Notes: a model not told the origin generated them from the sequence alone. Counted from the stretch's first letter, positions 890 through 20,795 are shown. The stretch: DNA of 64,000 nt from an uncultured delta proteobacterium (GCA_963769935.1 CAVYNY010000003.1:44341-108340); one strand, 5' to 3'. Numbers and translations are program-made.

Positions 890-909
890 ATTAAGGTCCA
901 AGAATTAAT

Positions 910-4344: not shown

Positions 4345-4428
4345 AGAATGTCCACTTAAAATCCAATCAGGTCAGGTAAAGCAGACTTTAACCCTACCCT
4401 GCCGATCCCCTCTCCCTGGCATTTCTAT

Positions 4429-4457
4429 GTAGACCAATTTTATGACTGGCGCGTCTA
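4429..4457 (+). promoter_or_regulatory. putative ECF promoter, motif 1 (GTAGAC-N17-CGTCTA)
   Basis: Upstream of the ECF gene at 4646; same spacing as the copies at 13998 and 20233. Confidence 0.6.
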
Positions 4458-4645
4458 TAAGGTAAAAATCCGAAATTCATGCAAGCGGTCGATTTGGTAA
4501 GATTTTTTAGTTTGAAGGCGGATGGAAATCTGATGGTGGTTAAGTAAACATGGACAATTCAGATGCGGACCGGATATCATGAGTTTCAAATTGATGCAAA
4601 AAGTGTTGCCGCACAATGTACAAACGTGATTTCCAAGCTCCTGAA

Positions 4646-5266
4646 ATGGCTCCATCAGATAAAACCACCACGACCTCTGAAACCTCCGACCAGCTGTTCT
4701 TGCTTGTTGAACAGGCTAAGGCAGGGAACCGCTCGGCCTTCGCCCAGCTGGCCGACCGATTTCATGAAGATATTTATCGCATGGTTTACTACCGCATCAG
4801 ATCCCGTCCCGATGCTGAGGATATTACCCAGGATGTGTTTTTAAAGATATTTCAAAAAATATCCGGCATCAAAGAGACGGCCAAGTTTCGCGGTTGGCTT
4901 TTTAGCATCACGCTGAACCGAATTCGGGATTTTCAGCGCAAAAAACGATTCCGGTCATTATTCAAGGCCGAGGATGAAAGTATAGAGTCGCACGCGCCCG
5001 AACAAAGCGACCAAGATCAGCCTGATGCGCTGGACCATGTTTTAAAAAAGGATTTTTGGCGACAAATCGGTTTGATCCTGAACAAACTGTCAAAAATGGA
5101 AAAAGAAGTCTTTTTGCTGAGGTTTTTTGATCATCTCAGTTTAACTGAAATCGCGGGCGTCTTAAAAAAAAACGAAAGCACGGTCAAAACCCATCTGTAT
5201 CGCGCGCTCGCCAAATTTAAAAGTGAACCCGCAATGCGACGCCTTCTCAATGAGGTTAACAAGTGA
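4646..5266 (+). CDS. ECF RNA polymerase sigma factor (ECF-1)
   Basis: Region 2 DAEDITQDVF...FRGWLFSITLNRIRD; region 4 LSLTEIAGVLKKNESTVKTHLYRA. Start could be 4616. Confidence 0.92.
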   Translation: MAPSDKTTTTSETSDQLFLLVEQAKAGNRSAFAQLADRFHEDIYRMVYYRIRSRPDAEDITQDVFLKIFQKISGIKETAKFRGWLFSITLNRIRDFQRKKRFRSLFKAEDESIESHAPEQSDQDQPDALDHVLKKDFWRQIGLILNKLSKMEKEVFLLRFFDHLSLTEIAGVLKKNESTVKTHLYRALAKFKSEPAMRRLLNEVNK

Positions 5267-5817
5267 ACTCAAATGACAACCACCATTTGGACGAGAATCA
5301 ATTTATTAAAGCGGTAGTGGATGCATCCGACCTGCCGGAGGCCGTGCAGGCGCATTTGTTCACCTGCACTCAATGCCGGAACAGAAGGCAAAACTTTGAG
5401 CGGGAATTGACCAGTTTAGGCCAAATTGCCGGGCTGTCGGTACCGAAACCGCAAAGACGGATCATTTTGCCGGCGCAAAAGTCCACAATCAGATTCTCAA
5501 GTTTCTTGGATTGGCGCAGCGTTATTGTGGCAGCGGCGACGGTTGCCGCTGTATTTATGGTTGTGTGGGGCACCAACATGGCACGCAATTTTTCCGAGCA
5601 CCGAACCGAAAACCTGACAGCGGAAATACGGGATGCCAATCGACCCATGAGCGAAGTCAACTCGCTTGTTGAAAATGCGCTGCCCCCATTTTATTTAGAA
5701 ATCGCAGATGAACCAAAACCAGATTACGATGAAGAGTTTTATCAATTTTTGATTCCGCCTGTTGAAGATAAAACCGTAACCTCTGAGCAAGGGAATCGAG
5801 GAACTTCATTATGCTAA
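5263..5817 (+). CDS. putative membrane-anchored zinc-binding anti-sigma factor
   Basis: HLFTCTQC (HxxxCxxC), one TM helix, overlaps the sigma gene stop. Confidence 0.7.
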   Translation: MNSNDNHHLDENQFIKAVVDASDLPEAVQAHLFTCTQCRNRRQNFERELTSLGQIAGLSVPKPQRRIILPAQKSTIRFSSFLDWRSVIVAAATVAAVFMVVWGTNMARNFSEHRTENLTAEIRDANRPMSEVNSLVENALPPFYLEIADEPKPDYDEEFYQFLIPPVEDKTVTSEQGNRGTSLC

Positions 5818-6218
5818 GAAAGATATTCAGTGTCATCTTGCCGGTCATTTTTCTGGTTGCTCCATTGATTGCCGCGGCTCAGCACGGTCCAAGAGGCAAA
5901 TGGTGGCATAACCCCCAGATTCAAAAGAATTTGAATTTGAACGAAAATGAAATCGGCAAATTGGACCAGCTTTTTGCCAACATCCGCCCCAACCTGATCA
6001 AGCTTAAAACGGATGTCGAGCGCGAGCAATTTGAACTGGATCAACTCCTGAGCAAAAAAAAGGTCGACGATGCTGATGTTAAAAAGCAGTTCCAAAAACT
6101 GGAGCAAGCCCGTAAAAATCTTTCCAACGCACGCCTTGACTTTGTGATCGGCGTTCGCAACATACTCGGTGCCGATCGCTTCCAGCAGCTCAAGTCCAAC
6201 TTTCAGAAGTGGCAGTAG
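5811..6218 (+). CDS. periplasmic Spy/CpxP/heavy-metal-sensor-like helical protein
   Basis: Signal peptide ending AAAQ, then GKWW..P...LNLNENEI and a helical hairpin; third gene of the ECF module. Confidence 0.7.
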   Translation: MLRKIFSVILPVIFLVAPLIAAAQHGPRGKWWHNPQIQKNLNLNENEIGKLDQLFANIRPNLIKLKTDVEREQFELDQLLSKKKVDDADVKKQFQKLEQARKNLSNARLDFVIGVRNILGADRFQQLKSNFQKWQ

Positions 6219-6276
6219 AAAAAATTTTTCGCAACTCGGCCGGTAAGGACTTTTTTCTCCGTGGCACGGCAAAATT

Positions 6277-7026
6277 ATGGATCCGGCAGCAATTCTCGCT
6301 TCACGCGACATCCTGCAAAAAATAGAAACCGTTTGCAGTCGACAGTTCTCTGCTGAAAACGACCGGGATGAGTGTTACATCTTCGTGCTTGACAGCCTCA
6401 AGGCCGACGATTTTAAGCGGCTGCGGGCCTTTAAAGGCAAAAGCAAATTATCCACCTATCTGTATTCTCTGATCAACTCCCTGGTTATTGATTTCAGACG
6501 CAAAAAATACGGCCGCCGGCGTGTCCCGGCCGCCGTGTTAAAACTCGGCAAGTGGGCTGAGGCAGTCTACCGGCTGGTGTGCTGGCAAAAGTTTTCCTTT
6601 GATGACGCCTATGATTTTCTGCGGGTTGACGGCCTGTATGACGGCAACTATGATCAGTTCATACAGGAGATCGAGGCGATCCGGAATGCACCCTGCCGGG
6701 AAAATCCGACTTTTAAATCGATCGATGAACCAGACAGAAATTCGGTCCAGCATATGGAAGCTTCAGGCGCCGATCCGCTGGAGGACCTGATACAAGCGCT
6801 TGACAGGGAAAAAAGAATCACAGCCCTCAGGGTTATTCGCGCAACAACGGAGGCACTGCCGGAGCCCGATCAGATTCTGGTCAGGCTGGTGTTCGGCTCG
6901 GGGCAGCCGCTAAGTGCGGCTGCCAAAATCATCAACCTTTCTGCATCCGCAGCCCGCAAACGGCTGCAGACTCTTTTATTAAAATACAGAGAAAGTTTGC
7001 TGGCCATTGGTATCCGCGAGCCGTAA
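6277..7026 (+). CDS. atypical ECF-like sigma-70 factor (ECF-2)
   Basis: FKGKSKLSTYLYSLINSLVIDFRRK (region 2) and LPEPDQILVRL..GQPLSAAAKIINLSASAARKRL (region 4), with a long insert between them. Confidence 0.75.
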   Translation: MDPAAILASRDILQKIETVCSRQFSAENDRDECYIFVLDSLKADDFKRLRAFKGKSKLSTYLYSLINSLVIDFRRKKYGRRRVPAAVLKLGKWAEAVYRLVCWQKFSFDDAYDFLRVDGLYDGNYDQFIQEIEAIRNAPCRENPTFKSIDEPDRNSVQHMEASGADPLEDLIQALDREKRITALRVIRATTEALPEPDQILVRLVFGSGQPLSAAAKIINLSASAARKRLQTLLLKYRESLLAIGIREP

Positions 7027-7039
7027 AATGTCCGTCTAA
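7012..7039 (+). promoter_or_regulatory. putative ECF promoter, motif 2 (ATCCGC-N11-TGTCCGTCTAA)
   Basis: Spans the ECF-2 stop and precedes the anti-sigma gene; near-identical to 7887-7913. Confidence 0.6.
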
Positions 7040-7095
7040 TTACTCTGCCTGATTATATTTTACTAGGTATGTTTAACAATTGAATAGAGGCAAAA

Positions 7096-7683
7096 ATGGG
7101 AAAATGGATCAATAAAAGCATGGCGCCAGCCGTTTCAGAGCAATCCGCTAATCATCCGGCCATCGAAGATATCGCGCGGCTGGCGGAAGGCAGGGTCGAG
7201 CAAGCTGAACGGGAACAATTCCTGCGCCATCTCAACCGATGCCAAAGATGCTACGAAATCCTGCAGGAAACCCTGATAGACATTGCCTCCGCCAGGCCTT
7301 TGCCAAAGGTTTCCGGTCCCTGGTGGAAATCCAAAATCTTTTATGCCTTGGCTGCCTCAATTTTACTGGTCATTATCATCGGCGGGCGCCTGGTATTTGA
7401 ACACCGCAATCAACATCCCCGGATCATAACCGCCACACTTGATATGGATCAGGAGTTAAAGGACATCCTGCTGGAAGGCGACACCCTGCGGTGGGAGAAG
7501 GGACCGCGGCTAAGCCGGCTGGTGGCTGCTCTGCACAAAAAAGGTCTGCAATTTAATGATCTGAAAGCTGCTATCCTTGCGCAACCCTACTATCAGAAAA
7601 AAAGCCTGTTCGGTCCCGGGGAAGTCCTTCATATTCGCATCGAGAATGGCGTGGCCTATCTGAAGGTTAAAGAAAAAAACTAG
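7096..7683 (+). CDS. zf-HC2 anti-sigma factor-like membrane protein
   Basis: HP..EDIARLAEG...HLNRCQRC, TM segment ALAASILLVIIIG, periplasmic tail. Confidence 0.75.
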   Translation: MGKWINKSMAPAVSEQSANHPAIEDIARLAEGRVEQAEREQFLRHLNRCQRCYEILQETLIDIASARPLPKVSGPWWKSKIFYALAASILLVIIIGGRLVFEHRNQHPRIITATLDMDQELKDILLEGDTLRWEKGPRLSRLVAALHKKGLQFNDLKAAILAQPYYQKKSLFGPGEVLHIRIENGVAYLKVKEKN

Positions 7684-7886
7684 CTTTATGCCCTGCAAAT
7701 ATATTTAAGTAGTCGACGGGAATACTCAATTAGAGTTGCAGCTTTGAACATAAAAAATTCCAAGCCCCAAATAACTGCTTTTTGGAATTTGAAATTTGCG
7801 ATTTAGACCTACCTTGTCCCCTTCCCTCTATTCTCAATCCCTTTCGAAAAAAGACATCCCACTCAAAAAAAAATAATGAATTATTG

Positions 7887-7913
7887 ATCCGCCATTACCA
7901 TCTGTCCGTCTAA
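7887..7913 (+). promoter_or_regulatory. putative ECF promoter, motif 2 (ATCCGC-N10-TGTCCGTCTAA)
   Basis: 55 nt upstream of the 7969 start; shares 11 identical nt plus ATCCGC with 7012-7039. Confidence 0.6.
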
Positions 7914-7968
7914 CAAGTTAAAAAGAAATCCTTCACTTTACCAACACAATGTCAAGAGGAGACCTGTC

Positions 7969-8817
7969 ATGTTAAAAGTGACGTTCAGCAGCTCGGCCCC
8001 GAATCCTCCAATTCGAACATGGCGTTGGGTGTTTCTTGGATTGGCCGTTTTTATTTTTACTGTCCCGGGATTTCCGGCAGCTGCGAAACAACCCCCTACC
8101 ATTCAGCTGTTTCCAACCACGGTGGTGGAAAATATCAAGCACACCGGAGAGGCGGCCAAAGCCATGGAACAGGACCTTCAGAGTGTGATTGACCGCCTGA
8201 ATCAGCAGGAGGAGCTTTACCTGGCGAGCAAGTGCGAAGGGGCCGCAGCCGAACAGGGCTGCAATGAAATCGCCGGACAGCTGAGTCAAACCTATCTGGA
8301 GATGCTGACCTTGATGGAAACCCGCCTGCCGGGGATGGAGGATTCGGTCCGGGCCACGAATACCAGCCTGGAAAGACGGATTCGCACGGAGTTGGGCCGC
8401 AAAACAACTCCCCGTGGTCTGCAAAAACTTGTAGATGGAACGCCGCAGCAATCAACTGAGTCTCCCCGCTACAAGCGAAGGGCGGGAAGACTGAGCGAAA
8501 AGTTCAGACAGTATTACAAACTGGTAGCCATGGCCCCCGGATCGGGCGCGGGTGGATCACTGGCGGCAGTCGCCGCTGAAATTTACCTTGATACCCAGGA
8601 AGTGCAGGAACTTATTGCCCTCACCCGCGATGAAATCAGCCGCGCCAAACTCATGATTGATCTCGATCAGGCATACGGCATCATCACGCCGGAAATGTTT
8701 GAGATGGTCGGCCGGGTGAAAACGATTATATTTGGCGAGACCGGAGAAGCGGAAGGCATACCCAGTCCGCCGGCCGGCAGCGCTAAAGCAGAATATCGCA
8801 GCCCCCTTGAGATGTAA
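7969..8817 (+). CDS. exported alpha-helical/coiled-coil protein of unknown function
   Basis: GAGGAG RBS, signal peptide ending PAAA, Cys pair (SKCEG...QGC), long helical segments. Confidence 0.75.
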   Translation: MLKVTFSSSAPNPPIRTWRWVFLGLAVFIFTVPGFPAAAKQPPTIQLFPTTVVENIKHTGEAAKAMEQDLQSVIDRLNQQEELYLASKCEGAAAEQGCNEIAGQLSQTYLEMLTLMETRLPGMEDSVRATNTSLERRIRTELGRKTTPRGLQKLVDGTPQQSTESPRYKRRAGRLSEKFRQYYKLVAMAPGSGAGGSLAAVAAEIYLDTQEVQELIALTRDEISRAKLMIDLDQAYGIITPEMFEMVGRVKTIIFGETGEAEGIPSPPAGSAKAEYRSPLEM

Positions 8818-8854
8818 CTATGGAGGCGTTCGCCTATAACCGGAGGGTGTTATT

Positions 8855-9427
8855 ATGATTAAGCTACAAAGTAAAATGAATGCCTGGCGTTTCGACCAAA
8901 TTTTTCTGATGTTGATAGTCCTCGCACTTTTTCCGGCGGCCTGCGGGAACCGGCAATATGTTAAACCCGGCTGCACGCTGCCTTCCGGCGTAAATCTTGA
9001 AGAAGCGTTGGCGCACTCAAGAGAAGATCTTGGGCACCTGGAGTGCGAAACCATGTTTGACGGTTACTATATTAGACTCATTGAAGTCGCCAAACGCGAC
9101 CCCGCAATACAAAACAAGCGCAAGTTCAGCGATTTTTTGGAATGGGCCAATGGGGAAGGCATTATCGATAAGATCCAGGCTCGCGACTACTATAATCGCT
9201 ACTTCAATACCACCTTCATGTCTCTGCCGGACGATTTTAATGTTTGCTCATCCTGCGCCGAGAAAACCCAAAAAGATCTCGAATCCCAGCTGGAAGAAGA
9301 ACTCGGCCAGAAAGAAGAAGGGCTGTTGAGAGCGTGCCAGGATAAAAACGCCTATTACCTTGCGGCTGATCAATATAACTCCATCATGCTGCTGCTGGAC
9401 GCCACCTGCACTGCCTGTCGGAACTGA
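8855..9427 (+). CDS. Cys-rich lipoprotein of unknown function
   Basis: GGAGG RBS, lipobox-like FPAAC, further Cys residues including CSSC and CTAC. Confidence 0.7.
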   Translation: MIKLQSKMNAWRFDQIFLMLIVLALFPAACGNRQYVKPGCTLPSGVNLEEALAHSREDLGHLECETMFDGYYIRLIEVAKRDPAIQNKRKFSDFLEWANGEGIIDKIQARDYYNRYFNTTFMSLPDDFNVCSSCAEKTQKDLESQLEEELGQKEEGLLRACQDKNAYYLAADQYNSIMLLLDATCTACRN

Positions 9428-9472
9428 TATGACAAGCGAATGTCAGATAATGCTGAGCATCAGGACTGAATA

Positions 9473-9570
9473 ACACGGACTGAGCAACGAGGACTGAGGA
9501 CAGAGATGGAAAAAATTCGAGCGATGCAAACAGCGATACGTTCAGTCCTCAGCCCTCAGCCCTCATCACT
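9473..9570. repeat. inverted heptamer arms (GGACTGA / TCAGTCC-TCAGCCC)
   Basis: ggactga-type units on the left and complementary tcagtcc/tcagccc units on the right. Confidence 0.6.
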
Positions 9571-9607
9571 TTTTCGAGCAGAAACTAAATTTTAGGGAAT
9601 TCATACG

Positions 9608-10321
9608 ATGGAAAACAGATCTCATTCCGTCACGGTCTTTTCAGCCGGCTTTATCACCGGCGCCCTGGGAGTGCTGGTTATCGGCGCTGCGATGCTTTAC
9701 ATGTTGAACATGTCTGAATTTGTTGCCATATCCGTGTTGAAAATTCCCAGGGTTCAAAGGGTGCTGACGTGGACCTATGAGAATCTCAGACTCTCGATCA
9801 TCCCCTTTTTCTTTACTTCGCTGCTGTATACCGGCTCTCTTCTCCGCTTAAAGCGTTATCTGAAAGATCAGCGCACTCCGGTGGAAAAGATTGCCCAGAG
9901 CGAGCAGCTGGTTGATATCTGGATCAATCTATTCTTCGGGATCGGGGTAATTTGGACGGCCATCGGCATGCGCGGCGCCTTGCTGGACGGAGTCGGTGAC
10001 TTGAATGCCCAATCGGCAGCACAGCTGGGCGCCTTTTCGATCCTGCAACGATTGGTGGACGGCGGAATTTTGCTGGCATTATCCACCACCATCTTCGGTG
10101 CCGTCGGCGGCTATCTGCTGCGCCTGATTAAATCCATGGCGGTGGGTACCCAGGTGAAAGCTTATTACAATCGACTGGCAGAGCAGCAGGCCGACTCAGT
10201 TCATAAAGCCCTGCAATCCATCGACGGGCGGGTCCAGGAATTGGTGGGGATACAGAAAAATTTAAATAACTTGGCGAACACAACCGATGAAGGTAAAGCT
10301 ATCCGTCCGCCGGTTATTTAA
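9608..10321 (+). CDS. MotA/TolQ/ExbB-like proton-channel membrane protein
   Basis: Four hydrophobic segments; LFFGIGVIWTAIGM and GILLALSTTIFG resemble the ExbB/TolQ GLLGTVxGM and ALxTTxxG helices. Confidence 0.65.
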   Translation: MENRSHSVTVFSAGFITGALGVLVIGAAMLYMLNMSEFVAISVLKIPRVQRVLTWTYENLRLSIIPFFFTSLLYTGSLLRLKRYLKDQRTPVEKIAQSEQLVDIWINLFFGIGVIWTAIGMRGALLDGVGDLNAQSAAQLGAFSILQRLVDGGILLALSTTIFGAVGGYLLRLIKSMAVGTQVKAYYNRLAEQQADSVHKALQSIDGRVQELVGIQKNLNNLANTTDEGKAIRPPVI

Positions 10322-10450
10322 AGAAATGCAGGCATCAGGTGTTGAGAAAAAGCAAAAATATCAGAAAGGTTTCAATCCCTGCACACCGCAACGGACAATG
10401 GACAAACGACAGCGGACTTTGAATAATTGGCGCTCAATTTGGAGCAATCG

Positions 10451-11287
10451 ATGCACCCTTTATATCCATCGCCAATATCTCTTATCCGGCCCGAGGCTTC
10501 CTTTTCAAATGAGGTGGAAGTGCTGCAGACGGATGTCATGCGATTTTTTGCGATATTATGTCTGTGCCTGATGGCGATATTTGCTCTGGTCAAAACCCTG
10601 CCCATGGCCCCTTCGACCGGTCCTCCCACGATGGTCGAACCCACGGACCTTAAAGCAGATGTCGAAGCTCTGCAAAAACACATTGCCATGCTCAAAGAGA
10701 GGCTTGGGCAGTTAAGGACCCAAGTTCAGGCCGCCGCCGTCGACGCCGAAAAATCAACGACCGTGGCTGCCGTTGCGGAAAAAAAAATTAAAGATGAAAC
10801 GCAACACCTGGCAGAGATACAGGCAAAACTGAAGCGGGAAAGAGTAAAATTGAATCAACCTCGGTCGGAGAAAAAACCGGCTGAAATATTACCGGCTGAG
10901 CAAAAAAATCCGCCGCCTCAGACCGTCAGGCAAGGATTCAGCTTGCGTTTTGCCTCGGATGCGGCGCTGCAAAAGCTGATCGACAGCGGGAAAGTAAATT
11001 TTTATGCATTAGCCGGGAAAAAAGCCTGGCAATTGCACCTGAGAGACGGACAGCCGGTCTATTCGTCGACCCGATTTCCCAGTCAAATTCATGAAATGCA
11101 GACTCCCACCGTTCCCACTGAGTATACCGGGGCTTTTCACCGGCAGGTAGCGGCGTTCGGCCGCACCACGGTGACCTGGGGGGTGACGCTGCCTTCCCCA
11201 ACTATGTCATCCATTAACCAGCTCATCAAAAGCCGACCCGGGGGTGATCTGATCATCACCGCGGCCGGCGAGGTCGTTATAAAATGA
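10451..11287 (+). CDS. MotB/ExbD-like single-pass protein with periplasmic coiled coil
   Basis: GGAG RBS before ATG 10451; N-terminal TM with an Asp at its start (QTDVMRFFAILCLCLMAIFALV), then a coiled coil and a globular C-terminus; follows the MotA-like gene. Confidence 0.55.
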   Translation: MHPLYPSPISLIRPEASFSNEVEVLQTDVMRFFAILCLCLMAIFALVKTLPMAPSTGPPTMVEPTDLKADVEALQKHIAMLKERLGQLRTQVQAAAVDAEKSTTVAAVAEKKIKDETQHLAEIQAKLKRERVKLNQPRSEKKPAEILPAEQKNPPPQTVRQGFSLRFASDAALQKLIDSGKVNFYALAGKKAWQLHLRDGQPVYSSTRFPSQIHEMQTPTVPTEYTGAFHRQVAAFGRTTVTWGVTLPSPTMSSINQLIKSRPGGDLIITAAGEVVIK

Positions 11288-12882
11288 CAACCACCAACAA
11301 CATCGGGACCGGGATCCGGCCGTACATTTTACTCTTGATTTTTATAGGGTTGTCGGCCTGCAGCGGCCATCAGGTGTACCATGAAGTTGGACTGCCGGCC
11401 GGCGGATCGTCGCTTGATACCTGGCTGGAAGATACCCTTATTCCATACCTGCTCCAGCAACTCAGCCAGCACCCGCGCTTTAAAGGCCAACCCATTTTGT
11501 TGGTCGGCCTGCGCGGCGATGAGGTCCGCTCCCGCGCAGATGACTTGACGGGAGAGATCCGATCAAAAATCGGCGACGCGCTGCTGAAACAACCCGGTCT
11601 CGATCTTGCCTGGCAACCGACCGGCCCGCCACGAGAACACCATCAACGTCTCGCGGATGTCTCCTGTGGCACTTACCGCAAAATCCAATATTACATCGGT
11701 CTGGACTGCGGTTTGACCCGATTGGAGGGCAAGCTTTATGTAAAAGTGCGGGCCTTGAACCTTGCCGAACAAAAATGGGTGACCGGCTTCGGCAAATCAT
11801 GGGAAGGGCGGCCGACCGCAGCCCAGCTGGCGGCTCTGGCGCGCGAACATCCGGATGAATATTTGCGGGGTCGGCGCCAGCTGCCGTTTTCCGAGGAGCA
11901 GCCGGATTTGTTGGCTGCCTATTTGGCCCGCAATCTAAGCTGTGTTTTGCGGCAGGCCGAATCCGATAATCTGGTGGTGCATGTTGCCAAACCATCCGCA
12001 AATTCCCCGGCAGTCTTTAAAACGGCCCTGGAACTTGTGGGAAACTACCTGGCGCGTTTTCGGGAGGTGGAAGTAACCGATGATCCGAACCAGGCCAATA
12101 TCACCCTGGTATGCGAAATCCATGCCATCCATCAAGGCTTGCACCAGATCTGGGTCTCTGCCAGACACCGCCGTGATGAAAAATATCTGCCCGGCGCAGA
12201 GACTGAAGCGTATGTGTTGATTGATGCCCATGAACAGATGCAGGTCGCCGGCGCGCAGAATGCAAGACCTTATGCGCCCCTGCCCTCCGCCGCGCGCCTA
12301 TCGAATTCATCTGAACTAATAGCATCATTTGATCTACTGACGCCGATGAATCAGAATTCATGTTCAACCGGCGCTCCCTGGCAGTCTGGTGTACGGCGGA
12401 TTGACTCCCAGGAACGTATTCCGGGCGGCGGCTGTCTGGCCGTAGAAATGACGCTTTCGGCGGCGGCTTATGTTTTTTTGGTGGGTCAGGATGCCGGTGG
12501 TGAATTAACGCAAATGTTTCCATCTGTCTGCACCGGCCGGCAGGAAAATGATGCCCTGCTCCATCCCGGTCAGCTATTTCAATTTCCATCACTTTCAGAT
12601 CCCAACGCCGGGGTACTGGAACTTACCGGTTCGCCCGGCAGGGAACGGGTTTTTGCAATTGCCATAACAAGCCCGGATCTGGCCGATCGATTTGCCGACC
12701 GGCTGGTGGAAGTCCAGGACCTGTGCCGACCCGGCAAAATATTTGCCGATAACCTAATAGCCGGTAATAGCCGAACCTCTGCCGAAGGTATTTATCAATG
12801 GCAAGACTACTTGATCCGGCTTTCGGCTGATAATCCCGGTTTGGTCCAGTGGCAGGCAATCAGCTTCTGGCACGAGCCGTAG
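11284..12882 (+). CDS. lipoprotein with C-terminal DUF4384-like domain
   Basis: Lipobox GLSAC; alpha/beta N-terminal domains; LAVEMTLSAAAYVFLVGQDAGGELTQMFPS...PGRERVFAIA; overlaps the upstream stop. Confidence 0.65.
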   Translation: MTTTNNIGTGIRPYILLLIFIGLSACSGHQVYHEVGLPAGGSSLDTWLEDTLIPYLLQQLSQHPRFKGQPILLVGLRGDEVRSRADDLTGEIRSKIGDALLKQPGLDLAWQPTGPPREHHQRLADVSCGTYRKIQYYIGLDCGLTRLEGKLYVKVRALNLAEQKWVTGFGKSWEGRPTAAQLAALAREHPDEYLRGRRQLPFSEEQPDLLAAYLARNLSCVLRQAESDNLVVHVAKPSANSPAVFKTALELVGNYLARFREVEVTDDPNQANITLVCEIHAIHQGLHQIWVSARHRRDEKYLPGAETEAYVLIDAHEQMQVAGAQNARPYAPLPSAARLSNSSELIASFDLLTPMNQNSCSTGAPWQSGVRRIDSQERIPGGGCLAVEMTLSAAAYVFLVGQDAGGELTQMFPSVCTGRQENDALLHPGQLFQFPSLSDPNAGVLELTGSPGRERVFAIAITSPDLADRFADRLVEVQDLCRPGKIFADNLIAGNSRTSAEGIYQWQDYLIRLSADNPGLVQWQAISFWHEP

Positions 12883-13084: not shown

Positions 13085-13125
13085 CGTAACTCGCAACCCG
13101 TAACTCGCAACCCGTAACTCGCAAC
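13085..13125 (+). repeat. tandem 14-bp (2x7) repeat CGTAACTCGCAACC, about 3 copies, with degenerate copies from about 13045
   Basis: cgtaactcgcaacc cgtaactcgcaacc cgtaactcgcaac, directly abutting ATG 13126. Confidence 0.85.
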
Positions 13126-13949
13126 ATGACTCAACTGCACATTATCACTAAACTAATTATCTGCCTGGCCTTGCTTGGATATGGTCAACAGGCGGCAGGC
13201 GCCCTTAAAGAAGCCGGATCGGATATTGAGGCGCTGTGGCGCCTTTTTCTGGCCAACGATGCGCTGAAATCCCCTGTGATCAGTTTCCCTTATGATCACT
13301 GTTTTAATACGGCCGCCCAAAAATATGATCTACCTTTATCACTTCTTCTGGCCGTGGCGCGCGGTGAATCCGACTTTAATCCCAGAGCCCGGTCGGATCG
13401 CAACTGCCACGGATTGATGCAAATCCAGTGGCCCGGAACAGCCAAACATCTGGGAATCTATCGACTTGCGGCGCTGTATGAGCCGTGCACCAATATTAGC
13501 GCCGGAGCCCGATATCTGAGGGAGCTTATGGACCGCTATGATCAAAATCTGCATCTGGCCCTGGCGGCATACAACTACGGGCCGAATCGCATCCAGCCCA
13601 AAGCCGGACCGGGCCGTATTCCTCAGGGCGCCCAATGGTACAGCGGCTATATTTACCATCACCTGGAATTTGTCACCCAGGGGGGGACGCCGCATCCGGC
13701 GGCGCAGCGGGCAAAGGGTCGGCCTACGGCCGTGAAAAGCGGCTGGCAATCATAACGTTTAACCGGCCATATCGAGCGAGCGCATTTTACCGGCACCTTC
13801 AAGAACAGGCACCTGCGCTGAAACTCGATTGGTATCGTATCGGTTTGGGAAGGTTTCAGGTGGTGATGCGGTTCACGGATAAAAAAGCACTGGAAGCCGG
13901 CCGCAAAAAATTAAGAACTCTGGGAGTGATCGTCAAAGCCAGGAAATGA
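13126..13949 (+). CDS. exported SLT-family lytic transglycosylase, apparently frameshifted at a G7 run (ORFs 13126-13755 and 13635-13949)
   Basis: VARGESDF, GLMQI, GARYL and ALAAYNYG motifs; one extra G in the run at 13680-13686 joins it to a plausible small alpha/beta (SPOR-like) C-terminal domain. Confidence 0.75.
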
Positions 13950-13997
13950 GATGGAATGCCGGACCAATGATGTTGAAAAAATCAGCTAAATTATTTT

Positions 13998-14026
13998 GTA
14001 AACCTTTTTTTAACCTTATACGTCAC
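13998..14026 (+). promoter_or_regulatory. putative ECF promoter, motif 1 (GTAAAC-N17-CGTCAC)
   Basis: Intergenic, upstream of the caspase gene at 14394. Confidence 0.5.
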
Positions 14027-14126
14027 ACTCAATAGAAATTTTTTGTTATATAGTTTCATATGAGCGCCGCGGCTCTGAGAGCGTCATCTGATAGTGGAAG
14101 AAATTCGATGTAGTTTTATAAGTGCC

Positions 14127-14280
14127 CTCACCGCTGAGAGTCACAGAGAGCGCAGAGATTACATTAAAATTTTCTTTCGTCGGCGTTCTCGGCAGGCTCT
14201 GCGGTGAACTATCAGTTTCTTTTTCGATCAGATCGGCCGTTGTTTTGACAATGCGGCTTTGGCGCTGAAACCTGACATCT
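14127..14280 (+). repeat. dispersed composite palindromic repeat, family B
   Basis: Aligns by eye with the reverse complement of 26122-26296. Confidence 0.85.
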
Positions 14281-14393
14281 GTTAACCTAATTTTTGCAAT
14301 TTTAAATTATCAACGTTCTCAACTTCTCCCGAATAGAGTCTTGGAAAATGCAAGGGGCAAAATACCTAAAAAGCAAAAATTAGCGGAGTTCTT

Positions 14394-15818
14394 ATGGCTG
14401 ACAAAAATAAAAAGCTCGGCGGTTTTTGGTCCTATCTTCTCTGGCTGCTGCTGATGTCATTGGTCCTCGTTTCAACCTCCAGGGGTGAAGATCGGGCCCT
14501 GCTGATCGGTGTCGGACGGTATGCGCATTTCGAAGAAAAGCTCAACGGCGTCAGTCTGGATCTCGGCATGATGAAAGAATTATCACAACTGATGGGATTT
14601 AAGGAACATGCAATTAAGGTGCTGGAAAATGAGCAGGCATCTACCGCCGGGGTTAATGAGGCGATTGAAGACTGGTTGATTCGGGGCACCGGACCGCAGG
14701 ACCGGGTCCTGTTTTATTTCAGCGGGCACGGCTCCCAGGTTCCGGATGAAAACAACGATGAAAAGGATCATTTTGATGAAGTGCTGCTGCTCTATGATGT
14801 GACCCTCACGGAAAGGCAAGGCCGGCAGACATTGAACGGTGTTTTGCTCGATGATCAATTCGGCAGCATGCTGGCAAAAATCAAAAGCCGCAACATTCTG
14901 GTCATTCTCGATGCCTGCCACAGCGGCAGCGCAACCAGGAGCATCCGGCTGACCACCCGGTCTATTCCGATACACAACGCTCAGGTGAAATACTTCTATT
15001 ATTCGCCGATGCTGGAGGCAGCCGGCGGCAGCGGCCGGTTCGATGTGATGGAGCCGGATGCTTCACCGGCGGCTGCAGGCCGCTATGTGGCAATTTCGGC
15101 CTGCCGCGACGATGAGATGACGCTTGCCACCGCCCAGGGAAGCATATTCACACTCGGGCTGCGCGAGACCTTGCGTGCGGCGGCCAGGGCCGGAAAAAGC
15201 ATTTCGCCCGCAGAATTACAGCGCCGGACGACCCGATTCATTCAGGAACAAATAGGATCCGAAGGGGCTGCATTTCATCCCCAGATTGCCGGCCAAAAAT
15301 CCCTTCTTGAGCGTCCTTTGGAACTGGTCTCACTTGCCGGAGGAAGCGGCCCGGTGCGTCAAAATCTGGAAGCATTGATGCATAAAAGCCATGAAACCGT
15401 CTGGATCAATTTAAACAAAATCTGTTTTGAACCTGGCGACGTACTTGAAATATCCGTCAGATTATCCGAACCGGGGTATTTGAATGTCGTCAGTGTTCGT
15501 CCGGATGATCAGGCCACGGTGCTGTTTCCAAACCAATATCACCGACAGAATGCCGTTGACCGGGGCGCGTTGACCCTACCCACCCGTCAGATGAACTTTG
15601 AATTGGTGGCCGACGGCCCCCCGGGCACCATTCTGATAACGGCCTTTCTGACCCCTTCACCGGTGGACGGCTACAAAAACGGCTTCAAGACCCCGGAGGA
15701 TGTGATGGCGGGTCTCTCACCCGGTACAACGCGCTCCTTGATGCTGCGCCAAAACCAGGACTGGCTGGCCGCCGGCAGGGTAGCCGTTGAAATGCGGGAA
15801 AAAGGAGGATGCAGGTGA
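14394..15818 (+). CDS. exported caspase-family (C14) peptidase with C-terminal DUF4384-like domain
   Basis: Signal peptide; RALLIGV, FYFSGHG (His), ILDACHSG (Cys); FEPGDVLEISVRLSEPGYLNVV..LFPN. Confidence 0.88.
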   Translation: MADKNKKLGGFWSYLLWLLLMSLVLVSTSRGEDRALLIGVGRYAHFEEKLNGVSLDLGMMKELSQLMGFKEHAIKVLENEQASTAGVNEAIEDWLIRGTGPQDRVLFYFSGHGSQVPDENNDEKDHFDEVLLLYDVTLTERQGRQTLNGVLLDDQFGSMLAKIKSRNILVILDACHSGSATRSIRLTTRSIPIHNAQVKYFYYSPMLEAAGGSGRFDVMEPDASPAAAGRYVAISACRDDEMTLATAQGSIFTLGLRETLRAAARAGKSISPAELQRRTTRFIQEQIGSEGAAFHPQIAGQKSLLERPLELVSLAGGSGPVRQNLEALMHKSHETVWINLNKICFEPGDVLEISVRLSEPGYLNVVSVRPDDQATVLFPNQYHRQNAVDRGALTLPTRQMNFELVADGPPGTILITAFLTPSPVDGYKNGFKTPEDVMAGLSPGTTRSLMLRQNQDWLAAGRVAVEMREKGGCR

Positions 15819-16696
15819 AATATTTTTTCAAGTTTATCGCTGTCTTGTCGCTAATAATTTTTACCTGTATTCCCGTGGCGACCCGTATTTCAGCTGCTAT
15901 GGACTGCCGTCTGGGTGCTGATTACTACTACCAGGCCAAATCCGAAGCCGATCCGCAGCAGGCTATCCTCTGGTTGAAGCGGTCGGCGCAAGTATGCCCC
16001 AATTTCAATGCCTGGTATATGCTCGGGATGATATACACCCGCCAAGGAGAAATTGATCCCGCCATGGCCGCTTTTATGCGGGCCAGGACCCAGGCTGTTT
16101 CCTCCAAAACCGAAGCCCTGGCCCTGGCCCGCCAGGGCGAACTGCTGGCCCGCTCCGGTCAGCTGCCCCGGGCCCAGCAGGCCCTGGAACTGGCTGGACG
16201 GTTTTATCCTGCACCTGCGCCGGCTTGGCTGGAGGCATCTCTTAAGAATACCAGAATTAAACTGCAGCAGTCGCTGATAACAGCAGCCGATATCAAGTAT
16301 GTACTTGAATCCGGCACGCAATTAAGCAAAGACGGCCGATTTGCGGTTCGCCCGGCAGTGAACCTGCCGGTGCACTTTGACTTCGACCGGGCGGATCTGA
16401 ATTCAGCCGGCAGCCGTCAGGTGATGGAACTGGGTGGTGCCCTTTCCCACGCAACATTGAAGCAGTGGTCTTTTCTGCTGGTCGGCCATACCGACAAGCG
16501 CGGATCCATGGCCTACAATCAGACGCTCTCCGAAAGTCGCGCCTCTTCGGTAAGGATAGAATTGGAACACAGCTTTCCTTCGCTCATCGGCAGGCTGCAA
16601 GCCATGGGACGCGGCGAGACCGAATTACTGTACGACGGCGACAGCGAAGAAGATCATATGCTCAATCGCCGCGTGCAGGTGACGCTTTATCATTGA
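15809..16696 (+). CDS. exported TPR + OmpA-family peptidoglycan-binding protein
   Basis: TPR-like AWYMLGMIY..QGEIDPAMAAF; VHFDFD, VGHTDKRG, YNQTLSESRA, NRRV. Confidence 0.88.
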   Translation: MQVKYFFKFIAVLSLIIFTCIPVATRISAAMDCRLGADYYYQAKSEADPQQAILWLKRSAQVCPNFNAWYMLGMIYTRQGEIDPAMAAFMRARTQAVSSKTEALALARQGELLARSGQLPRAQQALELAGRFYPAPAPAWLEASLKNTRIKLQQSLITAADIKYVLESGTQLSKDGRFAVRPAVNLPVHFDFDRADLNSAGSRQVMELGGALSHATLKQWSFLLVGHTDKRGSMAYNQTLSESRASSVRIELEHSFPSLIGRLQAMGRGETELLYDGDSEEDHMLNRRVQVTLYH

Positions 16697-16875
16697 AAAT
16701 TGAAGATTGAAGATTGAAGATTGAAGATTTATGGAGTCGCCTCGCTCCAACTTTCAATTTAAATATTTTCAAAACCAAATCCGTTTGCAGCAAGATGTTT
16801 AATTGATAATGCGATATTTAAAATTTTGGCTAAAATCGATAGGATTCCGCCAATTTTCAATCTTCAATTTTCAAT
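16692..16875. repeat. dispersed repeat family A (ATTGAAG heptamer arms, GTCGCCTCGCTCC core)
   Basis: Tandem attgaag units with inverted ttcaat units at the far end; related to 28751, 52284 and 53613. Confidence 0.85.
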
Positions 16876-16914
16876 AAATTACATTTCACCCTGATTAGGA
16901 ATCTGTTTGTACCA

Positions 16915-19900
16915 ATGATTAGAGGACATAAAAAAATAGCGCTGTTGACGATATTGCTCTGGCTGGCCGGCGGCATTTCCCTGCCTGCCCTTGCTGAAAA
17001 TCATGCCCTGCTGATCGGTATCGGCAAATACCGGCAGCGCACACTGGAGGGGCCGCCCTATGATGTTGCGGCGCTTTCTCGAGTGCTTGCGGCGCAGTAT
17101 GATTTTCAAAAGGAAAATATCCGTACGCTCGTAAATGAAGAAGCCGTCAAGTCCAGAATCCTTTCTGAGATCGAGCGTCTGACGCATCACACCCATCCCG
17201 GAGACCGGGTATTCATTTATTTCAGCGGTCACGGAACCAGCCGCCGGGATGAAGTGCTGGCGCTTCCGCTGCCGTACAGCACCGGTGCGCTGGTGCCGGC
17301 TGATTTTGAGGCTGATCCCGCTCAACCGGTTGAAAAACTGCTGTCGCAGCTGATCATCGGCAGACGCGACCTGCGGCCGGCGCTGGAGCGACTTGATCGG
17401 GACCGACAGGTCCTGATGGTTTTTGATACCTGTTTTTCAGGCAATACCATCCGAGCCATTGGAAATCATAAAACCGCAAATTTAAGCCGCTACCTCCCGC
17501 TGCCGTCAAGAAGTGTCTTCAAAGCGGAGCGGGAAATTGGAAGCTTTGAGGAAAATTTGAATCTGGATGACCCATATCCCTATCAAAATATTTTTTATAT
17601 TTCGGCGGCTTCGGAAAATGAAGTCGCCAAGGATATCCAAAAAGATACCTTGGACTTATATCCGACCATTGACGGCAATCCCCATGGGGTTCTGACGGAC
17701 GCCCTTTTAAGGGTGCTGGCGGGACAAATGCGCGTCGACACCGACAACGACGGCCGGTGGAGCCAGATTGAGCTGTATGCGGCTGTCAAAAAAGAGGTTC
17801 AACGGCGCTTCCAACAATCGCCGCAGGCCTTGCCCAAGGTAGGGACCCGCACCGATCGGCTGTATTCGAGAACCTTTTTTGTGCGTTCGGCAAAAGCGGT
17901 TGCCACAGCAGGCGGGCACCCGGCCGAACCGGCGCCCGGCCGCCAGGGCGCGAATTATCAATCGGGTTATTCTTCTTCCCATGCGCTGGTGGTTGGCATA
18001 AACGAATATCGACACTGGCCGCGGCTCGAATATGCCGCCAATGATGCCAGGGCAATGGCCGCCAGGTTGAAAGCACAGGGCTTTCAGACTTACCTGCTCA
18101 CCGATGAGCAGGCCACGCTGAAAAATATTCTGGCCGGACTGGAAACGATTCGCCGCAGCATTGATGAGAATTCACGGATGATGTTCTATTTTGCCGGGCA
18201 CGGTCAGACCGAGGACCTGCCTGGAGGACGGGAAAGAGGGTATATCGTGCCGGTGGATGCGGATGCCTACAACTGGCAGCGTACGATGCTGCCCATGGAT
18301 CGGTTGAATCAAACTATCAGGCAGTTCAAAGCCAAACATATCCTTATGGCCTTTGACTCCTGTTACTCCGGACTGGGGTTGACTCGCTCGATAAAAGGTC
18401 GTCCCGATCCGGATTCCGCCTACATTCAGAAAATGATGCACTCCCGAAGTATTCAGATACTGACAGCGGGCAGCCGTTCCGAGCAGGCCATTGAAGCTGC
18501 CGGCCACGGACTGTTCACGGACCAACTGCTGGCCGCCCTCGCGGGGGCGGCGGATATTAATTCCGACGGATACATTACGGCGACCGAAATTTATGCCACC
18601 CTGCGTCCGGCCATAACCCAGAAGTCCTATAGCCGCCAGACCCCGCAGTTCGGCTATATCGAGGGCAACGGCGATATTATTTTTCTTAATACTTCCCGCG
18701 AACCAGAACCTGCCGCCGTTGTTGTTGATACTGCAATTAGCGGCATCGACGTATGGGCCGGCACCTCTGAAATCGGTCACCGCCTGCCGGCCGGACGGCA
18801 TCAGTTACCGGCTCTTGCGGGGCAAACAGCTCTGATCGTTAAAAAGGGCGGACGCACCCTTTATCGAAAGAATGTGCTGCTGTCCGCCAACAGGGTGTTT
18901 TCAATCCAGATCGGCGCAACCATTGCGACATCACACCCGCCGGAAGCATTTTCCACGATTACTATTGCCAATCATAGCGTCGACAATTATTCAAATTCGA
19001 TTGCCTATGATCTGGACGGTGACGGCCGGGAGGAGATGGTGACCGCCTCGGATAACCGGCTTTTTGCTTTCAGGTCCGACGGCACCATCATCTGGGAAAA
19101 AAAATTCCATTTCCCGATCACCTTGGATCTGATTGATGACTGGAATTCGCAGCCGGCCATTGGGCTGTCCGCCGTGAATGAGGATACAGTTCACCTGGTG
19201 CTGCTTGACCAGCGGGGAGAGCAAATTTGGCAGCATGTCCGAAAACTTACCCGCTATTACAACGGCAAAACCGACGGCGGGGGAAAGATTGCCGGGCTGG
19301 CGGACGTCGACCGGGACGGCCGCCAGGACGTCGTGGCCTTTGCCACGGCAGAATACACCTTAAAGCCCCGCGGCATCATCGTGTACGACGGTCGTGCCCG
19401 TGAACTGTGGCGCTACACAATCGGACCCGCTCCACAAAGCATCGTTGTCTGGCAAAAAGATTCAGGACGACCCGACATCATCATCGGAACGTACAGCCCG
19501 GGCGACGGAAATCGCGACTTAACCAACAACACCAGCGATATGCAAACCTACATCATCAGTGTCGACGGTTTTGGCAAAGCAAACTGGCAGATCCCGGTCG
19601 GCGGGTTTTACAGCGGGGTTGTCGTGCTGCCGGCCGGTCTGAAGGACCCTGCCCGTCGCTTTCTTTACGCCCATACCTATACGTCATCTCTTTATCGGGA
19701 AGATGTCGGCGCCATATATAAGATCTCACGATCCGGTCAAGTTCTTAATCGCTTTGAGACCCAAAATTCAATTTTAAGTGTGGCGGTTGCTGAAGCTGAC
19801 CAAAATGGACGGGAATATCTGTATGCGGCCGATAACAAGGGCAACCTGTTAAGACTGGATGAGCGCTTGAATCTGCTCCAGAGAAAGCCCTTGACTGCTG

Positions 19901-20223
19901 GACCGGCTGCTTCCCAGGTCAGACTGGTGGGGGTTCATGATTATGACGGCGATGGTTATAAAGACCTATTGCTTTACTCCTTTAATCGCCTGCTGTCCGC
20001 CAAGAATCCTCTGGCAGAAACGGGTCCGAATGACGCCGGGTTCTTCTCCCAGTTAAAGTTTCAGGTCATTTCAAAGGACTTTTCCAGGGTTTTGAAGAGT
20101 GTAACCATTGCCGCAGAATGGGAAAAATGGCGGGGATTTGCCGTCAAGGACCTGGACCGACCGGATACGACGTATTATCCGTTTATGGCACTGAGCGATA
20201 AATTAACGATATTTAACTACTAA
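16915..20223 (+). CDS. exported tandem double-caspase protein with FG-GAP/VCBS-like beta-propeller
   Basis: Signal peptide; domain 1 YFSGHG/FDTCFSG; domain 2 YFAGHG/FDSCYSG; DxDxDG motifs (YDLDGDGREE, ADVDRDGRQD, HDYDGDGYKD). Confidence 0.88.
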   Translation: MIRGHKKIALLTILLWLAGGISLPALAENHALLIGIGKYRQRTLEGPPYDVAALSRVLAAQYDFQKENIRTLVNEEAVKSRILSEIERLTHHTHPGDRVFIYFSGHGTSRRDEVLALPLPYSTGALVPADFEADPAQPVEKLLSQLIIGRRDLRPALERLDRDRQVLMVFDTCFSGNTIRAIGNHKTANLSRYLPLPSRSVFKAEREIGSFEENLNLDDPYPYQNIFYISAASENEVAKDIQKDTLDLYPTIDGNPHGVLTDALLRVLAGQMRVDTDNDGRWSQIELYAAVKKEVQRRFQQSPQALPKVGTRTDRLYSRTFFVRSAKAVATAGGHPAEPAPGRQGANYQSGYSSSHALVVGINEYRHWPRLEYAANDARAMAARLKAQGFQTYLLTDEQATLKNILAGLETIRRSIDENSRMMFYFAGHGQTEDLPGGRERGYIVPVDADAYNWQRTMLPMDRLNQTIRQFKAKHILMAFDSCYSGLGLTRSIKGRPDPDSAYIQKMMHSRSIQILTAGSRSEQAIEAAGHGLFTDQLLAALAGAADINSDGYITATEIYATLRPAITQKSYSRQTPQFGYIEGNGDIIFLNTSREPEPAAVVVDTAISGIDVWAGTSEIGHRLPAGRHQLPALAGQTALIVKKGGRTLYRKNVLLSANRVFSIQIGATIATSHPPEAFSTITIANHSVDNYSNSIAYDLDGDGREEMVTASDNRLFAFRSDGTIIWEKKFHFPITLDLIDDWNSQPAIGLSAVNEDTVHLVLLDQRGEQIWQHVRKLTRYYNGKTDGGGKIAGLADVDRDGRQDVVAFATAEYTLKPRGIIVYDGRARELWRYTIGPAPQSIVVWQKDSGRPDIIIGTYSPGDGNRDLTNNTSDMQTYIISVDGFGKANWQIPVGGFYSGVVVLPAGLKDPARRFLYAHTYTSSLYREDVGAIYKISRSGQVLNRFETQNSILSVAVAEADQNGREYLYAADNKGNLLRLDERLNLLQRKPLTAGPAASQVRLVGVHDYDGDGYKDLLLYSFNRLLSAKNPLAETGPNDAGFFSQLKFQVISKDFSRVLKSVTIAAEWEKWRGFAVKDLDRPDTTYYPFMALSDKLTIFNY

Positions 20224-20232
20224 CAGACGACG

Positions 20233-20261
20233 GTAAACAAAATCGACGCGTCGTGCGTCTA
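20233..20261 (+). promoter_or_regulatory. putative ECF promoter, motif 1 (GTAAAC-N17-CGTCTA)
   Basis: Upstream of the glycine-zipper lipoprotein gene. Confidence 0.6.
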
Positions 20262-20357
20262 TCAGGCTAAAATTCGACAAACCAAAACCTATGGGAACCG
20301 GCACACTGCGGGTGTCCGGCAATCAACCAGCCGCTGCACAGAAAGGAGGACGTCCAG

Positions 20358-20795
20358 GTGAAAACAATATCAAAAGGCATTTTTATTTTAATTGGATTGG
20401 TTATTGTTGCATCATGCGCCGGCCGACAATACGATCGTTACAATACCCAGCGCGGTGCGGCAATCGGCGCCGGCTTTGGCGCACTGACGGGACAGCTTAT
20501 CGGCCGCGATACCAGAAGCACGCTTATCGGTGCCGGTGTCGGGACCCTGGTGGGCGCTATCTTCGGAAACGCAGTTGATCAGGAGCGCCAGATTGCCAGA
20601 GAAGCGGCCGTAACGAATAGAAGAATTGTTTACTACGATCAGCAGGAAGGCCACGCTCTCGAAGCGATCCCCGGCCCCGAGGACCGGCACACAAAATGCC
20701 GCAAAGTAACCAAACGCGAGTGGGACAAGGGGTATCTTGTCAGCGAGCGAGTTGAAGAAATTTGTGAGGGGGAAAAGGTATCACAAATGTATTAA
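20358..20795 (+). CDS. glycine-zipper lipoprotein
   Basis: AGGAGG RBS, lipobox VASC, GAAIGAGFGALTG...GAGVGTLVGAIFG. Confidence 0.85.
   Translation: MKTISKGIFILIGLVIVASCAGRQYDRYNTQRGAAIGAGFGALTGQLIGRDTRSTLIGAGVGTLVGAIFGNAVDQERQIAREAAVTNRRIVYYDQQEGHALEAIPGPEDRHTKCRKVTKREWDKGYLVSERVEEICEGEKVSQMY

Follow-up and report, generated by a model that had tools for sequence, protein, structure and literature searches.

In a 64,000-nucleotide stretch of DNA from an uncultured delta proteobacterium (GCA_963769935.1 CAVYNY010000003.1:44341-108340; here the window, to whose positions all coordinates refer unless another locus is named), 15 consecutive plus-strand genes (g01 to g15; positions 4616 to 20795) had been predicted from the sequence to encode one envelope system driven by the proton motive force and linked to periplasmic caspases. 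The gene run is present as predicted. We find, however, that the locus is layered and not one unit. It holds a conserved core (g06 to g11) common to Desulfobacterota and Gammaproteobacteria, a separate module of a sigma factor of the extracytoplasmic function (ECF) type (ECF-1), an anti-sigma factor, and a Spy-like protein, and a Desulfobacterota accessory block that includes the caspases. On sequence grounds, g08 and g09 very probably form an ion-driven motor. We hold with moderate confidence that the core as a whole is a stress-induced, proton-driven machine remodeling the cell wall and outer membrane, with the caspases as accessories found only in Desulfobacterota-type loci.

When GTDB genomes were scanned with a g08 profile, 367 places were confirmed, and the 80 best loci among them were fetched (22 from Desulfobacterota and 58 from others, mostly Gammaproteobacteria). 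Presence counts take in only those loci with enough flanking sequence, and the profiles of the individual members were built from these same loci. Homologs of g08 number 2805 at 90% clustering and 221 at 50%, and the closest named ones come from Desulfobacterales. The co-occurrence of homologs in other genomes, on which the original prediction hinged, is borne out for the core: g06 is present in 76/76 loci, g07 and g09 in 77/77 each, g10 in 67/71, and the lytic transglycosylase (SLT) gene g11 in 58/64, and the order g06-g07-g08-g09-g10 is kept in 64/64 loci with all five genes. A distant subtype, subtype B (L185, L186, L191, L193, and L195), also keeps g06, g07, g08, g09, and the SLT gene (HHalign probabilities of 61 for g06, 96 for g07, and 98 for g09). 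In it, a gene for a transmembrane (TM) segment and linker stands between g07 and g08, and the downstream block comprises another lipoprotein gene replacing g10 together with DUF6844, TPR, and LPP20-like genes. The flanking layers turn over. The ECF-1, g02, and g03 genes adjoin that of the second sigma factor (g04; ECF-2) in 4 of the 10 relatives that yielded ECF-2 and are replaced in 4 others of these by an unrelated, opposite-strand ECF gene. This turnover, the lineage-limited accessory genes (caspases in 0/40 and ECF-2 in 0/41 loci outside Desulfobacterota), and the failure of caspases to track the core in Woeseiaceae (see below) lead us to reject a single 15-gene system. A FastTree phylogeny of 43 rows groups the host clade (99) and leaves the deep branches open; hence, we claim no direction of transfer. 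Among gene-content variants, a Fic-like gene (motif recognized by eye) follows g09 at L186:7318-8559, where it lies between g09 and the SLT gene, and at L196:1821-3062, and an ECF-like gene, a 671-aa possible anti-sigma factor, and a second SLT (all labeled by eye) lie 5' of the core at L199:3478-7703.

The residues of g08 and g09 provide the stronger evidence for a motor. Across 116 homologs of g08 (237 aa; AlphaFold2 model pLDDT [predicted local distance difference test] of 90.5), T117, G120, and G164 occur in 116/116 and T161 and G113 in 115/116. The spacing G113-x3-T117-x2-G120 equals that of G-x3-T-x2-G in the host's own TolQ, against which we checked what we take to be the motif of such motors, a conserved Thr in two channel helices. 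The adjoining gene in 77/77 loci is g09, whose product has an Asp (D28) at the start of its TM helix in 62/62 sequences from loci chosen by g08 and not by g09; a conserved TM Asp marks the B subunits of 5:2 motors in the accessible text of PMC9389320. Foldseek ranks ZorA (8qyh) first and TolQ second for g08, and VIA alignments recover ZorA (8vvn; Z = 9.3 over 146 residues), ExbB (Z = 8.9 over 164), and TolQ (Z = 8.0 over 146) over greater lengths than the unrelated helical bundles tied with them. HHalign against 33 MotA/TolQ/ExbB proteins aligned the two channel helices (E = 5.5e-4; probability of 30). The MotA/ExbB-like label first given to g08 thus stands on motif, fold, and profile, with no motor match in Pfam or NCBIfam; for g09, the sole feature suggesting a MotB/ExbD-like protein is one TM helix with an invariant Asp. 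Its periplasmic part comprises a coiled-coil stalk of 57 to 228 aa and a unique C-terminal domain, and profile searches of the PDB returned only coiled coils. Since the host also encodes TolQRA and two MotAB pairs elsewhere in its genome, g08/g09 would be an extra motor; it is single copy with housekeeping flanks. Several results count against the assignment, for homology to known motors is weak in every single test. The Foldseek E value is 0.14; the VIA Z score of 9.3 equals that of syntaxin and lies below the value of about 13 advised for helical bundles; the HHalign register, at a probability of 30, is 7 residues off the motif reading; PF01618 (MotA_ExbB) matched only 2/116 homologs (best E = 0.0028), g08 itself having no match; a profile search of the PDB with g08 found no motor; the Atlas motor rows for it (0.88 and 0.81) are leads only; and g09 gave HHalign probabilities of 1.5 against ExbD/TolR and at most 0.7 against MotB.

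The products g06, g07, g08, and g09 match no family in Pfam or NCBIfam, and g06, g07, and the g09 C-terminal domain appear to be three new protein families. The exported g06 shows the highest conservation of all members (mean column identity of 53%), with an invariant C89/C98 pair (56/56), and has no family in Pfam, in a PDB profile search, or in the Atlas (CagL at 0.76 being a lead only). The lipoprotein g07 has its lipobox Cys30 in 52/52 sequences and six further near-invariant Cys residues; its PDB profile search gave no meaningful match. In the AlphaFold2 model of g10 (pLDDT of 81), the middle domain (residues 205 to 313) resembles LpoB (Z = 8.1; root mean square deviation of 3.1 over 103 aligned residues; Foldseek probability of 1.00, E = 2e-3) and, more weakly, the dodecameric PelC (Z = 6.2) and TraT (Z = 6.0), and the C terminus is Ig-like. 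Residues from about 40 to 190 look like a first LpoB-like domain, which the whole-chain fold search barely probed, and we presume a likeness to FlgO/CsgG. A further gene of many loci, c6, encodes a TM segment, a Pro-rich linker of 66 to 221 aa, and a SPOR-like end, and occurs in 43/48 non-Desulfobacterota versus 2/15 Desulfobacterota loci. PDB profile searches with g10 and c6 gave coiled-coil or no meaningful matches. Pfam and NCBIfam recovered the other domains named in the original prediction (the two ECF sigma factors, the Spy-like partner, SLT, caspases, TPR-OmpA, FG-GAP, and glycine zipper, with DUF4384 in both g10 and g12). As to its claim that every non-sigma product has a signal peptide, lipobox, or TM helix, a hydrophobic segment exceeds the Kyte-Doolittle cutoff in 12/13 of them; the SLT stays below it, with an N terminus that looks like a signal peptide by eye.

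The SLT gene is split in the window, one open reading frame (ORF) covering 13126 to 13755 and the tail lying in another frame that ends at 13949. The window is one base short at a G run here: an extra G follows position 13679 in one DNA-run contig (99%+ alike) and one RNA-library contig, and relatives have one fused ORF. The split is therefore an assembly error, and the true gene spans 13126 to 13949 and encodes an SLT with a SPOR-like domain, a true pseudogene being ruled out by the extra G in contigs of two runs. The catalytic Glu (E81) is kept. Aligned to SPOR (PF05036), the tail scores a probability of 82 (E = 1.1e-5) in HHalign; the C-terminal domain of c6 scores 96.5 against the SLT tail and only 26 against SPOR, and Pfam finds SPOR in neither. 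By these profile comparisons the SLT tail and the c6 end are homologous. Just 5' of the SLT start, a 14-bp unit stands in three head-to-tail copies (13085 to 13126). One of the host's MotB genes (L108:570-1335) also seems split over two frames, possibly by another assembly error.

Motif finding 5' of g06 yielded two different, lineage-specific signals. In Desulfobacterota, the exact 10-mer TGTCCGTCTA occurs in 18/20 upstream regions, both misses being without ECF-2 (motif information content of 18.4 versus 9.7 for shuffled sequences). A second count of promoter elements placed it before g06 in 13/14 loci and before the anti-sigma gene g05 in 13/13, the window copies starting at 7029 and 7903. 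ECF-2 is found in 16/18 Desulfobacterota versus 0/41 other loci, and g05 in 16/18 versus 0/47; ECF-2 is single copy in the host genome, and neither protein has a solved relative. From these patterns, ECF-2 is likely to be the regulator of the core in the host lineage. A related element, CGTCTA with a TGTAGAC or GTAAAC -35, precedes ECF-1 (5/5) and g15 (3/6) against a background of 0.026 per region and is absent before the SLT gene (0/14), g12 (0/13), g13 (0/12), and g14 (0/13); the accessible text of PMC6061681 gives -10 elements of the CGT type as typical for ECF promoters. Elsewhere in the genome, an intergenic TGTAAAC-N17-CGTCTA (G000:C32:255008, plus strand) is a candidate further ECF target. 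A scan for sigma-70 promoters and terminators gave no excess over shuffles. The second signal, RTTCAG-N5-RTTCAG, lies 5' of g06 in 48/52 gammaproteobacterial versus 0/19 Desulfobacterota loci (background of 0.01 per 250 nt). It also precedes 10/10 reverse-strand genes of a glycine-zipper cluster (Pfam checked for one), 7/10 of which are followed by PepSY, OmpR-type response regulator, and kinase genes. We take this direct repeat with an 11-bp period to be an OmpR/PhoB-type box. A glycine-zipper lipoprotein is thus a likely member of both regulons, and the accessible part of the literature ties such lipoproteins to outer-membrane stress. The case for a stress-induced role at the envelope draws mainly on these two unrelated extracytoplasmic regulatory schemes, each apparently with a lipoprotein of this class.

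The caspase domains of g12 and g14, which match peptidase C14 (PF00656), all three keep their His/Cys dyads. In Desulfobacterota, 14/15 loci have caspases beside the core, versus 0/40 loci elsewhere, and TPR-OmpA is likewise absent from gammaproteobacterial loci. Among Woeseiaceae, whose related genomes are nonindependent and often incomplete, caspases occur in 11/54 core-positive versus 20/67 core-negative genomes (P = 0.30), leaving 43/54 core-bearing genomes without any caspase match. Accordingly, the link to caspases seems to be an accessory of Desulfobacterota, dispensable for the core yet nonrandom in that lineage. Hence, of the proposed proton motive force-driven complex with caspase proteolysis, what survives is a conserved, likely proton motive force-driven machine with a lytic transglycosylase, shorn of the caspases outside Desulfobacterota. 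Two of the host genome's three caspase matches lie at this locus. Exported caspases of differing architecture flank L045 (three different ones, 3' of the core), L185, L187, and L195; the sequence spanned at L084, L191, and L199 has none; and g14 is split into two ORFs in several relatives. Signal-peptide caspases figure as architectures without a settled function in the accessible text of PMC3501461.

A comparable system is DdvS-DdvA of Myxococcus xanthus, in which an ECF sigma factor is coupled to a periplasmic CHAT domain in phage defense, DdvA uniting a zinc-binding anti-sigma domain, a TM segment, and a periplasmic TPR-CHAT region in one protein (PMC11506125, accessible text). The locus shares with it an ECF sigma factor with a zinc-binding TM anti-sigma factor, caspase-fold domains outside the inner membrane, and a CGT-type -10. 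It differs in that g05 (195 aa) has no TPR or CHAT match, which excludes a DdvA-type anti-sigma factor, in that the caspases are separate C14 genes with no CBASS or CRISPR cargo, and in that its elements do not fit the GTAA-n16-CGT consensus given in the accessible text of PMC6061681. As g05 is without a CHAT domain, a split version of DdvS/DdvA is possible. An ambitious and, we think, unlikely extension would be a feedback loop in Desulfobacterota, in which exported caspases anchored at the wall serve as the site-1 protease, cutting g05 so that ECF-2 is free to induce the machine, together with a new class of 5:2 motor whose B-subunit coiled coil spans the periplasm and acts on a dedicated lipoprotein complex through an SLT-opened wall. 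Were this true, it would represent a counterpart of DdvA that is split and coupled to a motor, and it would supply exported bacterial caspases with a defined substrate; in any case it gives them a testable substrate hypothesis.

In the stress-induced remodeling machine that we favor, g08 and g09 would assemble into a rotary 5:2 motor driven by ions, in which protons would pass by way of the Thr rings of g08 and Asp28 of g09. The coiled-coil stalk of g09 would replace TonB/TolA in carrying force across the periplasm, where it would reach the exported g06 as well as the lipoproteins g07 and g10; c6, with its TM-Pro-linker-SPOR layout, would help where present. SLT-SPOR may open peptidoglycan locally for assembly of the complex or turnover of damaged wall. 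Envelope stress would switch on expression, through ECF-2 held by g05 in the host lineage and through an OmpR/PhoB-type regulator in Gammaproteobacteria, the glycine-zipper lipoprotein being coregulated in both. Exported caspases and TPR-OmpA may add wall-anchored proteolysis in Desulfobacterota, which the core would not need. Weighing against this account, phenotype does not set a repair role apart from secretion, adhesion, or defense; the promoter and box motifs are predicted elements; the 10-mer TGTCCGTCTA is not enriched genome-wide (6 matches versus 4.3 expected), no genome-wide ECF-2 regulon being found; subtype B lacks g10; neither the host nor three congeners yielded c6; and the relatives are nonindependent samples.

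To our knowledge, 5:2 ion-driven motors have few known jobs, namely, flagella, Ton, Tol, gliding/type IX secretion, and Zorya. The locus resembles Tol-Pal in the putative A-subunit fold and Thr motifs, the TM Asp of the B subunit, the wall and outer-membrane partners, the LpoB-fold lipoprotein, and the TPR-OmpA protein of the accessory block. However, its core has no TolA, TolB propeller, or Pal in Pfam/NCBIfam, the host's TolQRA being separate, and it has the long coiled coil and unique C-terminal domain of g09, a dedicated SLT-SPOR protein, and a patchy distribution. We reject membership in Tol on the ExbD/TolR comparison of the g09 C-terminal domain given above and the lack of a TolA or TolB match in the core. 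The ExbB fold match (Z = 8.9) and the layout of c6, with a TM segment, Pro-rich linker, and terminal domain, recall TonB-ExbB-ExbD. However, c6 ends in a SPOR-like domain, 0/33 of its members have TonB_C, its TM consensus has no conserved His, and no receptor recurs, so a Ton system is rejected as well. A MotAB stator is rejected on the MotB comparison of g09, the two MotAB pairs elsewhere, and the lack of a link to FlgI (see below). A wall-cutting enzyme with a SPOR-like tail and the LpoB-like fold of g10 are reminiscent of RlpA, a transglycosylase with SPOR, and of LpoB; the catalytic domain here is of the SLT family, however, and the operon has no PBP1B partner. A PbpC-like transpeptidase gene occurs beside L045 only (L045:1-8109, directly 5' of the core), along with a DUF4384 gene and one for a 1665-aa protein that is presumably an alpha-2-macroglobulin, whose pairing with PbpC we assume. 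Literature searches, mostly without subscription papers, found no description of this operon, and the accessible main texts of a force-transducer survey (PMC12204202) and a MotAB survey (PMC12505986) make no mention of SPOR or transglycosylase. Together with the absence of a system-level PADLOC match, this agrees with the original prediction, which did not recognize the combination as a named system. The g08 family escapes Pfam's motor model, and D28, T117, T161, and E81, together with the two promoter motifs, are concrete positions of interest.

Of the other explanations, an export or surface assembly machine is unlikely. Here, g10 would form a PelC/CsgG/TraT-like outer-membrane ring, the SLT would open the wall, and the motor would drive export or display of g06 or other cargo. 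The PelC and TraT alignments of g10, the conservation and export of g06, and the LPP20-like and DUF6844 proteins of subtype B fit it, and SLTs do accompany trans-envelope machines. The best match of the g10 domain is LpoB, however, and not a ring; g10 is replaced in subtype B; and the loci show no recurrent gene for a beta-barrel, an ATPase, or a pilin. Next comes an envelope-level defense akin to Zorya or DdvA, which we also judge unlikely. In it, the motor would sense a breach by phage or predator, and the exported caspases would be effectors or cut g05 to release ECF-2. ZorA is the closest fold match of g08, the intact-dyad caspases flank the core in Desulfobacterota and, in varied architectures, at the distant L185, L187, and L195, and DdvS/DdvA is a precedent. 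Against these stand the caspase counts outside Desulfobacterota and in Woeseiaceae and the absence of an ECF element before g12 to g14. The locus lacks the long ZorA tail, an OmpA domain on the B subunit, and ZorC/D/E, and every non-sigma partner is exported or membrane bound. Among the 16 locus proteins, PADLOC gives generic caspase and OmpA matches only, with no Zor match for g08/g09 and, as the sole ZorB match, the generic OmpA domain of g13, so membership in Zorya is rejected. Its matches among 104 flanking proteins are generic AAA, ABC, and radical-SAM domains, and neither plasmids nor viral contigs gave a match to g08; a defense island or mobile element thus finds no support, and the flanking proteins lend none to the defensive role first suggested.

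A motor for adhesion or movement on surfaces, by analogy with Agl-Glt, is quite improbable. We take the motor, the TM-Pro-linker transducer, the outer-membrane lipoproteins, and the transglycosylase to follow the parts logic of myxobacterial gliding, and the hosts of the fetched loci, as named, are largely sediment lineages. However, no Glt-like, adhesin, or cytoplasmic partner family recurs in the loci (Glt profiles themselves were not compared), regulation looks stress type, and in Woeseiaceae the presence of the core is independent of flagellar FlgI (32/54 core-positive versus 41/67 core-negative genomes; P = 0.85), which also removes a link to flagella. The gliding motor known from the accessible text of PMC9389320 is AglRQS. 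That g08/g09 serve the SLT and lipoproteins as a passive scaffold in the membrane, as their weak sequence and fold scores might suggest, is highly improbable: two TM threonines of g08 are invariant and spaced as in motors, and the gene always next to it encodes an invariant TM Asp.

The distribution of the core is patchy. We found g08 in 11/22 congeners, 3/300 sampled Desulfobacterota, 0/400 sampled Pseudomonadota besides the centre genome, 9/151 genomes of a tubeworm symbiont's order (centre included), and, as a strong single copy, 54/121 Woeseiaceae genomes (one weak match left out). About 45% of the Woeseiaceae genomes sampled thus have the core, and its carriers also include tubeworm symbionts and sulfate reducers of sediments. 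Its flanks are varied housekeeping genes (53 proteins). RNA-library contigs of relatives at 90 to 97% cover the locus, such contigs being no proof of transcription.

Genes and predicted elements of the locus, with window positions
Feature	Position	Strand	Evidence
Predicted ECF-1 autoregulatory promoter, TGTAGAC-N17-CGTCTA	4428..4457	+	CGTCTA with TGTAGAC-type -35 in 5/5 loci; putative function
g01, ECF sigma 1 (separate accessory module)	4616..5266	+	Sigma70_r2/r4_2
g02, predicted TM anti-sigma factor for ECF-1	5263..5817	+	NF052375, E = 1.4e-4; TM 86-104
g03, Spy/CpxP-like periplasmic protein	5811..6218	+	PF13801 (Metal_resist), E = 2.7e-9; Spy, E = 8e-4
g04, ECF sigma 2 (ECF-2)	6277..7026	+	TIGR02937 above cutoff
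TGTCCGTCTA, predicted ECF -10 for anti-sigma gene g05	7029..7038	+	Just 3' of ECF-2 stop; 13/13 loci
g05, anti-sigma factor (zf-HC2, TM, short periplasmic domain)	7096..7683	+	PF13490 weak, E = 0.016; TM 81-99
Predicted core operon promoter, TTGATCC ... TGTCCGTCTA	7884..7912	+	Exact 10-mer in 18/20 Desulfobacterota upstream regions
g06, core; exported protein with invariant Cys pair	7969..8817	+	76/76 loci
g07, core; Cys-rich lipoprotein	8855..9427	+	77/77 loci; lipobox Cys30
g08, core; putative divergent MotA/TolQ/ExbB/ZorA-type A subunit	9608..10321	+	Motif, fold, and profile
g09, core; predicted B subunit	10451..11287 (alternative start 10427)	+	TM with invariant Asp28; 77/77 loci
g10, core (subtype A); lipoprotein, LpoB-like domain and C-terminal DUF4384 Ig-like domain	11284..12882	+	67/71 loci
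g11, core; lytic transglycosylase (SLT) with SPOR-like tail	13126..13949	+	PF01464, E = 7e-27; E81; 58/64 loci
g12, accessory; exported caspase-DUF4384	14394..15818	+	PF00656, PF14326; dyad H112/C175
g13, accessory; exported TPR-OmpA protein	15809..16696	+	Pfam; 11/13 Desulfobacterota loci
g14, accessory; exported protein with two caspase domains and FG-GAP repeats	16915..20223	+	Dyads H106/C173 and H429/C483
Predicted ECF promoter for g15, GGTAAAC-N17-CGTCTA	20232..20261	+	3/6 loci
g15, glycine-zipper lipoprotein	20358..20795	+	PF13441/PF13488; lipobox

Upstream of the locus (positions 11 to 4117), the window carries alpha/beta-hydrolase, AMP-ligase, and dehydrogenase genes, which we take to be oleBCD-like, and then a gene for a PocR sensory protein. 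Loose-ended contigs pile up at two short intergenic stretches, 14140 to 14250 (before g12) and 16690 to 16735 (before g14), which are likely dispersed repeat elements.

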